Positions 1,004 through 63,895 of a stretch of DNA of 64,000 nt are shown here, in pieces. The DNA lies in the IMG/VR virus record IMGVR_UViG_3300025875_000001, positions 32,001 to 96,000 of that record; one strand, 5' to 3'. Origin of the DNA: a virus. The position numbers and the translations under genes are program-made. Within the stretch, counting starts at the first letter, position 1. Each line of letters starts with the position of its first letter. Below the pieces are notes generated by a model, which did no database searches, had not been told where the DNA came from, and saw only the letters and a program-made list of their open reading frames with translations.

Positions 1004-3304
1004 TCAAGGACGAACCCACTTCAATGAAATACTGGTACGCACGTGCCTTCCTGCACCTGTATCTATAATAGCGGCGGCACTACAAAACGCCCATATCGCT
1101 AACGTCTGACCTACTGCAAATCTTTTCGTTAAAGACAAATTAAAATCACAAGTAATAGCATTTACTGGATTTTGAGTAGAAGATGCAAATGTATTAGCAT
1201 TACCACCTGCACCTATATCATCAGATATATAAAAAATACCTACACCGCCAGCCGGAATACCAAATCTTGCATTTGCAGTAATTTCCCAAAGTCCGGCCCT
1301 GTTAAGAGTGAATAAATCTGAGTTAGCATTAGGAGTAACGTCAGCAGTTGTATATTCAGATGTTTTTAATGGAACCCTCAAACCATTTCCACCGGCTGCA
1401 ATATTAAGAGTGGACAAAGCAGTGACTACATATCTAGCATCTCCACCAATGTTTGGATTTACATTCAGCCAAGCTGATCCATCGTATACCATCAAGGCAC
1501 CGTTTAGATTATAATGATCACCTCTTCTAAGACCAGTAGACGGTAATACCGATCCTGCTCCTAAATCTCTTGTGGTATATGCTAATGCTGGAACGGTGGG
1601 TGCAGTAGGGGTTCCTCCCAAGTCCCCGGCCAATTGAATAGTACCTACTGATGTTGTACTTGCTACAGGTGGAGCATAGTTACCGGCTTTTGCTGTAGTA
1701 GCTGTAGTTCCAATTGCTAAATTAGAAGTGCCTGCGCCAATTGCCGATCTTGCTGTTGCTGCGTCAGCGGCAAGCAAAACACTCCTACCAACAGGAGTAG
1801 AGTTTGATATATCTGTTGCAGTATGGGTGTGAATAGAAGACGCCTTAGCATCTAACAAAGGCTTTAATCCTGCGGGGTGAACGGCGCGAGTTGTATCCGT
1901 TCCTGTCGCAGTTTCAGCAGCTGTAGCCATTTCTACACGACCTGACACTGTCTCACTAGCAACATTCATAAATATCGTATTGCTAGCACCCCATGTAAAA
2001 CCTGCATTATCCAATGCGACTGGAACCCACGCATTCGTAGAATCGTCCCAACCCAGGAGACGATCAGCATCAGGATCAACAAACGCTGGAACTCGCGTAG
2101 AAATTTGACTATCTACATAATCCTTACGTGTCAATTCATGGGGAGCGGTTGGACCGCCCTGCTCCGCAAAAAGTCGGGCGGCTCCGAAACGGGCACCACT
2201 ATCTCTACGAGCAATAGAGTTTGCCTCTAATGGATTGGACGTACCAATATTGTCTACATAATCTTTGCGAGTAACATTATTGGGTGCCGTAGGAGCTAGA
2301 GAAACCTCCATACCAACAACATGAGCATATCCGTTAACATCTCTTCTAACAATTTTATCTGGATTCGGTTCGGGAGTTGCACTAAATATTAAATCTTCGA
2401 CAGGAGCCCAAGAGCCAAACTTTTGAACCAAACCAGTAGGAAGCTCGTTTAACCCTGGCTGGTTTGGTTCACTATAAACTATAGAAGAATTGTTTTTACT
2501 TATAGCAATTTCTGTAATATGAATTCTAGAATAACTAACAACATTACGAACCCACATTTCTACTATAGTAGGGCCATCGGTAGAAACAACAACAAAAGCA
2601 ATATAACTTAAATCAAATGAATCTGTATCTGATGACAGACCAGACACCGTTAAAAACAAATATGGTAAATTACCATAAGGTTCTTGCTGCTTAGCGCGTA
2701 TACCAATCAATGCCCGCATAAGATCTGATGATCCATGATCACTGGTCTGTAGGAGAATTGTACCATTAATATCTGAAAATTGAGATAACAAACTTATTGT
2801 CCCAATTTTATACCAATCTCCAATATTGTCATCAGTTGTATTATTAGTAGATGTAGAAGGTTGTAAACGAGTTACTTTTACATCTCCATTGGAACCAGGA
2901 GCTACACCATTTACAGTATCAACTGCCCCTATTGCTCTAGGCAAACCTAAATTTAATGTTTGATTTGGTGATGTGCCTGTAATTGAAGCTGTTGCACTCG
3001 CCCCCGCCGCTAATGTAGCCACAGTACCTATGGTCAAATTGTTAGGCGGTCCTGTTAAACCAGTATTACCTCTAGGGATGGTTAAGTTCAATACTTGATT
3101 TGGTGATGTACCTGTAATATTGGCGGTTGCAGAAGATCCAGCAACAACAGTAGATACAGTACCTATAGTTAAACTATTACCCGGCCCTGGTATACCTTGC
3201 TCACCCTGAATTCCAGTAGCCAGACTTATCTCTATTGGATTTATGTTTTCAACTACTATTACCGGCTCTACGGTAGGATCAACTATCTCTATAATATCTG
3301 CCAT
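1004..3304 (-). CDS. Fiber-like virion protein (short collagen-like N-terminus, shaft repeats, C-terminal beta-sandwich tip)
   Basis: 766 aa, Gly/Ala/Thr-rich, GIQGEQGIPGPG triplets, VTRKDYVD repeats; shaft and tip paralogous to 18302-19639 and 17571-18302. Confidence 0.7.
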   Translation of the reverse strand: MADIIEIVDPTVEPVIVVENINPIEISLATGIQGEQGIPGPGNSLTIGTVSTVVAGSSATANITGTSPNQVLNLTIPRGNTGLTGPPNNLTIGTVATLAAGASATASITGTSPNQTLNLGLPRAIGAVDTVNGVAPGSNGDVKVTRLQPSTSTNNTTDDNIGDWYKIGTISLLSQFSDINGTILLQTSDHGSSDLMRALIGIRAKQQEPYGNLPYLFLTVSGLSSDTDSFDLSYIAFVVVSTDGPTIVEMWVRNVVSYSRIHITEIAISKNNSSIVYSEPNQPGLNELPTGLVQKFGSWAPVEDLIFSATPEPNPDKIVRRDVNGYAHVVGMEVSLAPTAPNNVTRKDYVDNIGTSNPLEANSIARRDSGARFGAARLFAEQGGPTAPHELTRKDYVDSQISTRVPAFVDPDADRLLGWDDSTNAWVPVALDNAGFTWGASNTIFMNVASETVSGRVEMATAAETATGTDTTRAVHPAGLKPLLDAKASSIHTHTATDISNSTPVGRSVLLAADAATARSAIGAGTSNLAIGTTATTAKAGNYAPPVASTTSVGTIQLAGDLGGTPTAPTVPALAYTTRDLGAGSVLPSTGLRRGDHYNLNGALMVYDGSAWLNVNPNIGGDARYVVTALSTLNIAAGGNGLRVPLKTSEYTTADVTPNANSDLFTLNRAGLWEITANARFGIPAGGVGIFYISDDIGAGGNANTFASSTQNPVNAITCDFNLSLTKRFAVGQTLAIWAFCSAAAIIDTGAGRHVRTSISLKWVRP

Positions 3305-41588: not shown

Positions 41589-41657
41589 GCGGGTCGCTAG
41601 GAATCGAACCTAGATACATCGTGGCTTGATTAAGCTTTACCATTAAGCTACGACCCT
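41589..41657 (-). tRNA. Degenerate tRNA (possible Gly-GCC-like pseudo-tRNA)
   Basis: Good D-arm GCTT-AATGGTA-AAGC and T-arm CTAGG-TTCGATT-CCTAG; anticodon stem only 3 bp around AAGCCAC. Confidence 0.45.
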
Positions 41658-61824: not shown

Positions 61825-62391
61825 CTAGGTTTTATGAGAAACAATTCTATATATAGACGACTTAGATACTGGAAAAAATAGCGCGATATCTTGTACGCTT
61901 GTTCCTGCTTGGTTTAATTTTAATATTTCTAATACATCATTTTCGGTTAGTTTTGCTTTAGGATTTTTAGAGCCTTTAGGATTTATTCTTCTTTCTTTTG
62001 AGAACATATCAACCATATTATCTTTATGAGTTCCCAAAAATAGATGATGAGGGTTTACACAGCACGGATTATCACAATGGTGACAGATTTCTAGTTCTTT
62101 TGGAATTATTCCAATATAAATACTGTAAGACAGCCTATGTGCTTTTCATTGCTCACCGGCAACATAAGCAAGCCCATACCCGTCTTTATTTTTACTTTTA
62201 TTCCACTCCCAGCAACCGGAAGGAACAACAGTTTTGTTACCTTCAATAAACTTTTCATTTGCTTCATTAAGCGCAGGTTTACCAATTTTCAAGGGATCTT
62301 TATGTTTATACCATCGCATATAATGCTTGCGACAGTACCCTCTGGCCAAAACTAAACCTACACAGTCTTCTATCGTACATTTACTATCCAT
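61825..62391 (-). pseudogene. HNH endonuclease interrupted by an in-frame TGA (62146-62148)
   Basis: Frame continues GEQ*KAHRLSY...ICHHCDNPCCVNPHHLFLGTHKDN into a C-terminal HTH. Confidence 0.85.
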
Positions 62392-63029: not shown

Positions 63030-63051
63030 GGTGGAGATGGCGGGAGTCGAA
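63030..63051 (-). other. Orphan tmRNA-type 3' end (T-loop, T-stem 3' strand, acceptor 3' strand)
   Basis: TTCGACT-CCCGC-CATCTCC-A-CC with no matching 5' T-stem strand. Confidence 0.65.
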
Positions 63052-63081
63052 TCATGCCTCCACATGTGCTATAATAATATT

Positions 63082-63573
63082 ATGGATATCAAAAAATGCT
63101 TTACGTGTAAAGAAGAATATAAACCAACAAGTAGACATAAAAGCTGCCCTAAATGTAGAGAAATAGCGAGAAGACATAAATGCTTAGATTGTGATTTAAT
63201 TGTAGGTTCACAGTCTAAAAGATGCGTTAGTTGCAACAACAAAATACTTACAGATACACAAAGATCTAAACCTCTAGAAGCAAGATCTAGAAGATTAGAT
63301 AATAGAGGGTATATAGTTATTTCAATGCCAGGTAGATCTAATGTTTCAGAACACAGAATTATTATGGAACATCATTTAGGCAGAGAACTGCTTAAAAACG
63401 AAAACGTGCATCACATAAACGGCGTTAAACACGATAATCGAATAGAAAACTTAGAACTATGGGTTGTGAATCAGCCTTGCGGCCAGCGCCCCGACGATTT
63501 GGTTGCCTGGGCTATTGATATACTAACTAAGTATGGACCTGAACACCTACAACAAACATCAATACAAGCTTGA
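63082..63573 (+). CDS. HNH endonuclease, antisense to surrounding genes
   Basis: [12 protein letters not shown]...[18 protein letters not shown]; TGC-TATAAT (63070-75) 6 nt before ATG 63082. Confidence 0.88.
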
Positions 63574-63580
63574 TATCTCT

Positions 63581-63895
63581 TGTAGGTGGGGAGAATCGAA
63601 CTCCCGTCTTGATATCTTCTACAATAAAAATTAATTACAGCCATTCCGTATCCCCGGCGGGTCTTACTGGCAGTGCGGGTGTTACCAACTAGCTTACGCT
63701 AGGACTTGCAAGTATTCTGTTCCAAGGTCCTCGCTACCCGGTAACTTAAAGAGTTACAAATGAATATTCGGCACAAAGTGCTTCATATTCTGCATCAATG
63801 TTGTCTGCATTTATATTTTTGATCTGTTTTAAGTCTCTTATCAAAGACTGGCTGCGTTCTATAGTTTCATATACCAATCGATACCGGTCACCCAC
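63581..63895 (-). ncRNA. ssrA: tmRNA (315 nt); tag ADNIDAEYEALCAEYSFVTL*
   Basis: GTGGGTG/CACCTAC acceptor with G3-U70, discriminator A, GGGAG-TTCGATT-CTCCC T-arm, ACCGGTATCGA after 5' stem, ATAAAT-GCA resume context at 63808. Confidence 0.88.

Follow-up and report, generated by a model that had tools for sequence, protein, structure and literature searches.

How does a phage genome come to carry, some 0.5 kb beyond an intact transfer-messenger RNA (tmRNA) gene, the isolated 3' end of a different tmRNA on the same strand, with an endonuclease gene between the two? The question is raised by a locus in a 64,000-nucleotide stretch of DNA, called the window here, which comprises bases 32001-96000 of the complete, 134,813-bp IMG/VR phage record IMGVR_UViG_3300025875_000001 with terminal repeats. 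The answer that we favor, with a probability of roughly 0.85, is that the locus is a homing cassette of a lineage of HNH endonucleases that inhabits tmRNA 3' ends. This interpretation is carried by the anatomy of the locus, by the recurrence of the same layout within one clade of HNH proteins, by near-isogenic phages that differ in the presence of the cassette and in one of which the old end stands displaced, and by the lack of any match to an integrase in the genome or to an intron at the locus.

Anatomy of the locus

The tmRNA that faces the HNH gene (the resident tmRNA; Table 1) is intact, as the initial annotation had maintained. In addition to its covariance score, it has a T-arm, a tag frame with a resume codon that is kept in relatives, and a 7-bp acceptor stem, the 5' strand of which, GTGGGTG, pairs with CACCTAC at all seven positions, G3:U70 included. 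The 3' end reads GGGAG-TTCGATT-CTCCC-CACCTAC-A, and CCA is not encoded. The gene body has homologues in the tmRNAs of Streptomyces phage BillNye and of the uncultured phages L334, L332, L086 and L091 (loci retrieved in this study carry L numbers), and the tag, which opens with ADNIDAEYEALCAEY, aligns with the tags of the same five phages. ARAGORN did not call the resident tmRNA, and the unusual 5' strand GTGGGTG may lie behind this miss. It should also be noted that the 5' end of the tmRNA (63895) starts with G-U-G (U2:A71), and that five relatives of the family as well as the phages MulchMansion and LilMartin all start with GGGG.

The second end, referred to as the orphan, lies on the upstream side of the HNH gene, fifteen bases before its promoter, and reads GGTGGAGATGGCGGGAGTCGAA on the plus strand. 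Because the bases that precede it (GGCATGA) offer no partner for a T-stem, its break is placed at the edge of the T-loop, in agreement with the initial annotation, which had described a tmRNA-type 3' end broken at this point. IMG/VR has 75 contigs with the exact 22-mer: it stands 62 times at the 3' end of tmRNAs called by ARAGORN, nine times with a complete T-arm, three times in fragments that resemble att sites, and once in a tRNA-Ala. A chance match is ruled out by these numbers and by the overwhelmingly tmRNA-type contexts, judged by which the 22-mer is a genuine 3' end of the alanine type and overwhelmingly of the tmRNA type. Its acceptor strand, CATCTCC, has one U-C mismatch against the resident 5' strand GTGGGTG.

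The HNH gene is convergent with the tmRNA and stops six bases past the tmRNA end on the opposite strand. Its product matches PF13392 with 37.6 bits (cut-off 24.8) and phrog_20891 with an E-value of 2.6e-29, and the residues H91, N108, H110, H111, N119 and N123 are invariant in the alignment of its homologues. A search of the PDB with the sequence gave nothing useful; the best fold match of an AlphaFold model of the protein (pLDDT 84) was I-HmuI (1U3E), and this match is weak (probability 0.95, E 0.13, TM 0.31). The initial annotation had also assigned a leaderless promoter of its own to this antisense gene, and the comparison of cassettes agrees: the extended -10 motif (consensus TGnTAYAAT) and the N6-ATG spacing return in MulchMansion (TGCTACAAT), L091 (TGGTATAAT), L171 (TGCTATAAT) and L092 (TGGTAGAAT), and a site at this distance from the ATG implies a predicted leaderless mRNA. 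The promoter was called by conservation across cassettes only; a simple two-hexamer scan does not pick up this extended -10 site. The closest HNH proteins (P0002-P0004), which are 59-61% identical, are encoded on contigs of about 1.1 kb.

The cassette is AT-richer than its flanks (G+C fractions of 0.32-0.37 versus 0.42-0.47). In the complete phage genome, no tyrosine or serine recombinase (PF00589, PF00239; integrase, resolvase) was matched, and a search for a group I intron at the locus gave no match to an Rfam intron family even at E-values up to 10.

Table 1. Features of the tmRNA/HNH locus, in window coordinates
Feature	Position	Strand	Basis or remark
Orphan tmRNA 3' end TTCGACT-CCCGC-CATCTCC-A-CC, no 5' T-stem	63030-63051	-	Exact 22-mer, equal to the native end of HNH-less Samistivirus
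Extended -10 promoter TGCTATAAT (63067-63075) plus 6 nt, then ATG	63067-63081	+	Motif and spacing kept across cassettes
HNH_3 (I-HmuI-like) gene, 163 aa, N-terminal CxxC zinc ribbons, convergent with tmRNA	63082-63573	+	PF13392, phrog_20891
Hairpin with 19-nt arms (63544-62, 63570-88) straddling the HNH stop codon	63544-63588		Inverted repeat and fold
Direct repeat CTTGATATCT, copy 1, overlapping the HNH stop codon and the hairpin	63569-63578		Exact 10 nt
Intact phage tmRNA, tag ADNIDAEYEALCAEYSFVTL	63580-63895	-	Rfam RF00023, 68.9 bits (gathering score 47)
Functional 3' module: resident T-arm, acceptor 3' strand and discriminator A	63581-63605	-	AAGAG cassette tail directly after it
Direct repeat CTTGATATCT, copy 2, just 5' of the T-arm in the tmRNA sense	63608-63617		Exact 10 nt

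Near-isogenic phages with and without the cassette

The HNH protein has its best full-length phage homologue in Streptomyces phage MulchMansion (gp182, 40% identity), and the locus of that phage is laid out as in the window, with an orphan, the promoter at its N6-ATG spacing, the HNH gene, and a convergent, intact tmRNA. Its sisters LilMartin and Angela, which are 99.1% identical to it over the flanks, are without the HNH gene, that is, the homologous cassette shows the presence/absence pattern of a homing gene. The initial annotation had forecast that relatives lacking the HNH gene would have one tmRNA with an orphan-type end, and this is seen, in the sister lineage, in LilMartin and Samisti12, whose flanks are about 99% identical to those of MulchMansion: aligned with MulchMansion, these two HNH-less phages have a single tmRNA that ends GCGGG-TTCGACT-CCCGC-CATCTCC-AC. 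The functional tmRNA of MulchMansion ends GGGGG-TTCGAAT-CCCCC-CATCTCC-AT, with four differences from the sisters, including one compensatory stem pair and a change in the T-loop, and the sister-type end is found intact across the HNH gene, beside the same ribosome-binding site. In MulchMansion, then, the functional terminus differs, and the displaced orphan is identical to the end in LilMartin. The two ends in the window also differ, and strongly.

A small open reading frame, gp183, is also unique to MulchMansion, and therefore the whole block probably arrived by recombination with an HNH-bearing donor. A 66-aa open reading frame beside the orphan of the window was considered as a further part of the cassette and was rejected, as it has no similarity to gp183. 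For gp182 itself (L083, 2975-3465), the deposited coding sequence starts at 3094, whereas both homology and the position of the conserved promoter point to a start near 2975; the earlier start adds about 40 N-terminal residues, including the zinc-ribbon cysteines.

Recurrence in phages and bacteria

Further loci were fetched with a profile of full-length HNH homologues from IMG/VR, metagenomes, and GTDB genomes. At least 14 other loci, including MulchMansion, uncultured phages, and bacterial genome bins, have a homologous HNH gene in this convergent position at a tmRNA 3' end, and six of them, the atypical L092 counted, have an orphan end. L091 combines a 60%-identical HNH protein with a tmRNA of the same family as in the window, and its orphan of 14 nt, CCGA-CTACTCC-ACC, has the acceptor type of its own tmRNA. 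The orphan of L171 (about 25 nt) has two differences from the resident end, that of L173 is a perfect 25-nt copy of the resident end followed by CCA, and that of L175 is decayed. Five genome bins of Acidimicrobiia have convergent HNH/tmRNA pairs with an A-AGAG junction, and in four more bins with convergent pairs (Saccharibacteria and Actinomycetes) the HNH gene follows an intact CCA; a terminator hairpin also precedes the HNH gene at least in the Saccharibacteria-type bins L253, L272 and L285. In five loci of the Candidate Phyla Radiation (CPR) type, the HNH gene lies downstream of the tmRNA on the same strand.

The layout follows the phylogeny of the HNH proteins. In a quick tree of 59 full-length proteins, which has several long branches and should be relied upon for clustering only, the proteins of the window, L091 and L171 form a clade with a support of 98 in the Shimodaira-Hasegawa-like approximate likelihood-ratio test (SH-aLRT). 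A second clade comprises 19 rows, namely 17 tmRNA-adjacent ones together with L092 and L287, at a support of 88, which is below the threshold of 95 for this tree. Genomic context changes eight times on the tree, compared with 28 times when the labels are shuffled.

Related genes are found at other tRNA-type genes. In a sister clade of HNH proteins (support 98), the stop codon touches or overlaps the 5' end of tRNA-His(GTG) in 13 CPR loci, which are listed among L251-L258, L260, L263, L267, L271, L275 and L281 (GTDB); some of these bins are labelled Gammaproteobacteria. Shorter HNH relatives are convergent with a tRNA-Glu(CTC)/tRNA-Gln(CTG) pair in bins of Actinomycetota and Acidobacteriota, the tRNA-Glu-facing loci being L299, L303, L307, L312, L313, L315, L320, L321, L325, L326, L329, L330 and L229. 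The HNH homologues in Thibault, Weasels2, Cece and TomSawyer have unrelated contexts.

L092 (2430-3320, from an uncultured phage) is atypical. Besides an HNH gene and the promoter named above, it has the orphan GAG-TTCGACT-CTCCA-CATTTCC-AC; a resident 3' end was not observed at this locus, and the tmRNA-like 5' part GGGAATGGACGGTTTCGACGG occurs twice. The tmRNA of L092 may be truly split, or it may be a degenerate gene.

Junctions and a hairpin shared by two genes

On the side of the functional tmRNA, AGAG stands directly after the discriminator A, replacing CC(A), in the window, L091, L171, L175, L266, L270, L274, L284 and L302. The conserved right-hand junction is directly after the tmRNA discriminator base, with the tail AAGAG. 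On the other side, the orphans end with A-CC(A/C/T), followed by locus-specific DNA in every case, while their 5' edges are ragged: the orphans of MulchMansion and L173 start before the T-stem, those of L171 and L092 inside the 5' T-stem, that of the window at the T-loop, and that of L091 in the 3' T-stem. From these ragged edges we infer that the end was trimmed before its capture. The initial annotation had proposed that a free-standing homing endonuclease, unaided by an integrase, invaded the tmRNA at its T-loop. The first part is borne out by a locus that is free of recombinases and introns and by a layout that recurs, whereas the T-loop has to be given up as the insertion point, because the conserved junction follows the discriminator base and only the ragged 5' edge of the orphan lies in the T-arm.

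The junction is embedded in a hairpin in which the acceptor 3' strand and the AAGAG trailer pair with the last codons of the HNH gene; the arm within the gene contains CAC-CTA-CAA-CAA, which encodes His-Leu-Gln-Gln. The arms are complementary at 16 of 19 positions, and 18 pairs form in the RNA fold (z = -5.5 in the tmRNA sense). The hairpin is kept in seven cassettes with differing acceptors (CACCTAC, CTACTCC, CAACTCC, CAGCTCC), and eight of 15 pairs have changes on both sides; outside the window it is located at 2960-3004 in L091, 979-1021 in L171, 1682-1727 in L175, 2471-2516 in L270, 2150-2198 in L274, and 2468-2514 in L284. It is probably a two-way terminator of both convergent transcripts, or else a processing hairpin. 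Through its matching arm inside the HNH gene, the resident acceptor CACCTAC appears to be tied to the cassette, and the covariation of the hairpin with the acceptor indicates that the HNH coding sequence and the tmRNA sequence are co-constrained.

The 10-nt direct repeat pointed out by the initial annotation is exact (Table 1). It has a palindromic GATATC core and flanks the resident T-arm/acceptor module, and inspection of the other cassettes by eye turned up no clear counterpart.

Origin of the orphan end

If the locus is a homing cassette, where does the orphan come from? On balance, we lean toward the reading that it is the phage's own former tmRNA end and that the whole 316-nt tmRNA allele came with the cassette by homing, as the initial annotation had proposed. 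This reading requires no later substitutions and accounts for the pristine state of the orphan, and a native end of this type is plausible for the phage because L332, an HNH-less member of the same tmRNA family, has a GCGGG/CCCGC stem and an ACC tail. The orphans of L091, L171 and L173, each with the acceptor type of its own tmRNA, are as expected of displaced native ends and support this reading.

Several observations weigh against it. The comparison of the states before and after the replacement is borrowed from another lineage, since no close relative without the HNH gene was found: an exact pattern of the tmRNA body in IMG/VR gave only BillNye, patterns of the tag region gave the family members L086, L332 and L334, none of them close to the phage, the 66-aa neighbor protein gave no match as a query, and the dCMP deaminase gave one match at 33% only. 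Orphans are absent or unrecognizable in several of the bacterial cases. The resident T-arm, GGGAG-TTCGATT-CTCCC, is native in the HNH-less family member L334 and could thus have been inherited vertically rather than derived from a donor, and the misfit of the orphan acceptor with the resident 5' strand needs either a co-conversion of the whole gene or later compensation. Finally, the two copies in L173 are identical over 25 nt, and thus substitutions in the T-arm are not required for immunity. The loops nevertheless hint at a resident allele that would resist cleavage, another idea of the initial annotation, because TTCGACT is kept in three phage orphans that face TTCGAAT or TTCGATT in the resident loops; alternatively, the changed flanks may confer immunity.

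The most serious competitor, to which we assign perhaps one chance in four, retains the homing cassette and takes the orphan to be a passenger from a donor with the common end TTCGACT-CCCGC-CATCTCC, of the kind seen in Samistivirus phages, so that the tmRNA of the phage would be native and never replaced. The orphans of the window and of MulchMansion match at 21 of 21 positions, although the tmRNAs are very different, and both the acceptor misfit and the identity of the resident T-arm with that of L334 would follow directly; the hairpin arm could have been retuned to a native acceptor by synonymous changes, as CAT-CTC and CAC-CTA both encode His-Leu. However, the orphans of L091, L171 and L173 are of the local acceptor type and not a common import, and the sequence right after the orphan CC(A) is locus-specific everywhere, as if it were native DNA. 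A neutral passenger should, moreover, have decayed in the time during which the HNH proteins diverged to 40% identity, and since the 22-mer is a generic tmRNA end, two orphans could be identical without common descent.

The remaining explanations are far less probable. The orphan could be the 3' remnant of a tRNA-Ala of the tRNA array, cut short by the arrival of the HNH gene downstream of the tmRNA. Among the 75 exact matches there is indeed one 3' end of a tRNA-Ala(TGC) (L044), U70 fits alanine identity, and the phage has 33 tRNA genes, mostly near the cassette; yet at least 62, and probably 71, of the matches are tmRNA ends, the orphans of homologous cassettes copy the end of their own tmRNA, the tRNA-Ala of the phage ends differently, and relatives have no tRNA-Ala directly after the tmRNA, all of which makes this origin very unlikely. 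Slightly less likely still is that the duplicated ends are a relic of the attL/attR or attP type, left by an integrase-mediated insertion at ssrA, with the HNH gene as a bystander. Duplication of the tmRNA 3' end, beginning at the T-loop, is classical for integrative elements, and the three att-like fragments among the 75 matches fit such an origin. However, the complete genome is without a tyrosine or serine recombinase, the inserted segment of about 0.5 kb contains the HNH gene only, and the layout follows the HNH phylogeny across phages and bacteria. In addition, the phage appears to be of the virulent type and distant kin of the Streptomyces BE-cluster phages (Stanwilliamsviridae), distant because its rIIA-like protein is only about 33% identical to their homologues, and BE-type phages are regarded as virulent (PMC10690885). 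Least likely of all is that an intervening sequence, either an intron or a trimmed spacer, contains the HNH gene and that maturation connects the tmRNA to the distal end: tmRNA T-loops split by group I introns are known (PMC11915505), and L092 seems to have a distal end only, but no such intron was matched at the locus, the proximal end is complete with 7/7 pairing, and the distal end has no T-stem partner and a mismatched acceptor.

A putative mechanism of homing

Under the preferred reading, with a displaced former end, the cassette would start with the AAGAG tail after the discriminator, comprise the antisense HNH gene, and finish with an extended -10 leaderless promoter of its own. In a co-infected cell, the nuclease would cut or nick an HNH-less tmRNA allele in the T-arm/acceptor region, and repair would copy the cassette together with the functional 3' module of the donor, probably along with the 316-nt tmRNA in whole or for the most part. 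The former 3' end of the recipient, cut back into the T-arm, would be left past the promoter as the 22-nt orphan. The tmRNA remains functional because a complete T-arm and acceptor lie upstream of the cassette. CCA would be added after trimming, as with the other CCA-less tRNA genes of the phage, and the hairpin formed by the last HNH codons and the acceptor 3' strand would probably end both convergent transcripts.

A somewhat better than even case can be made for a more general statement, namely, that an HNH lineage seated on the 3' ends of tRNA-like genes rebuilds the ends of RNA genes without an intron or an integrase, and that protein-coding and RNA-gene sequences are co-constrained in the process. 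The lineage would be widespread, with tmRNA as its site in actinophages, Acidimicrobiia, Saccharibacteria, and other CPR bacteria, and with sister clades at tRNA-His and tRNA-Glu. In its cassettes, the CCA or trailer would be replaced, an orphan end would be left behind, and a hairpin covarying with the acceptor would include the last codons of the endonuclease gene as one arm.

Other features of the genome

The phage genome has a G+C content of 42%. A second HNH_3 gene, with a C-terminal helix-turn-helix of the resolvase type, lies about 640 nt past the orphan (61825-62391, minus strand); it contains one in-frame TGA after codon 81 and is either broken or read through. A tRNA at 41589-41657 on the minus strand was detected by Rfam (41 bits) and is absent from the ARAGORN output. 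Outside the window, at genome positions 126098-126170, ARAGORN calls a tRNA with the anticodon CTA, of the amber-suppressor type, that is labelled tRNA-Pyl.

Implications and comparison with known systems

Orphan tmRNA ends in phage genomes need not signal att sites or lysogeny, and ARAGORN can miss tmRNAs of the cassette-bearing type. MulchMansion and LilMartin, which are cultured and near-isogenic and differ by the cassette, represent a ready experimental system. Should these enzymes have the specificity that their contexts suggest, they would be natural nucleases against one of the most conserved short sequences of bacteria.

We found no published account of an HNH cassette rebuilding the end of a tmRNA, but several known systems share parts of its design. 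I-HmuI (PDB 1U3E) is an intron-encoded HNH nicking endonuclease of phage SPO1. It shares the catalytic core of the Pfam HNH_3 type and is the best structural match of the model, although only weakly so (E 0.13, TM about 0.3); the phage HNH gene is free-standing and not intronic, and its product has an N-terminal double zinc ribbon in place of the DNA-binding modules of I-HmuI. SegB of phage T4 is a free-standing GIY-YIG endonuclease in a tRNA cluster, its recognition site includes the tRNA T-stem-loop, and it spreads with flanking markers in mixed infections (PMC2330249). Common to both would be a free-standing phage endonuclease that recognizes the T-stem-loop of a tRNA-type gene, for which SegB is the precedent; SegB belongs to another nuclease family and targets tRNAs, and no replacement end or orphan has been described for it.

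The tmRNA gene itself is used by two other kinds of mobile elements. Its T-loop is the entry point of group I introns, some of them with LAGLIDADG genes, and its 3' end is the site of integrase-borne islands and prophages (PMC11915505). The intron forms resemble the cassette in that a mobile element uses the same few bases of the tmRNA and the gene stays usable; in contrast to them, the cassette has no ribozyme, and a spare DNA copy of the end, not splicing, keeps the function. Islands that carry an integrase leave the tmRNA 3' part, from the T-arm onward, in two copies, of which the functional one comes from the element. The cassette shares both properties, but it is only about 0.5 kb long and without an integrase, and its copies are not a defined att core, as the 5' edges of the orphans range from the T-stem to the acceptor.

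The closest published analogue appears to be the mobile endonuclease open reading frames (mORFs) of fungal mitochondria (atp6 of Allomyces; atp6, atp9, cox2 and nad3 of Glomus), in which an endonuclease open reading frame is accompanied by a foreign gene terminus, while the native terminus is displaced downstream and identical to the gene of a sister species (PMC3630166). In both cases, a replacement 3' end travels with the endonuclease and neither an intron nor an integrase is involved, and MulchMansion compared with LilMartin shows the same pattern. The differences are that the mORFs encode LAGLIDADG or GIY-YIG endonucleases, often in phase with the host gene, whereas the tmRNA cassette has an antisense HNH gene with its own promoter, targets an RNA gene in phages and bacteria, and duplicates a piece of only 14-28 nt. 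The cassette would thus extend terminus replacement, known from the protein genes of fungal mitochondria, to phages and bacteria and to a structured RNA gene. Beside integrase-borne islands and self-splicing introns, it would be a third mode of selfish life within the tmRNA gene, in which a nuclease gene by itself imports or retains a spare copy of the last 20-30 bases.

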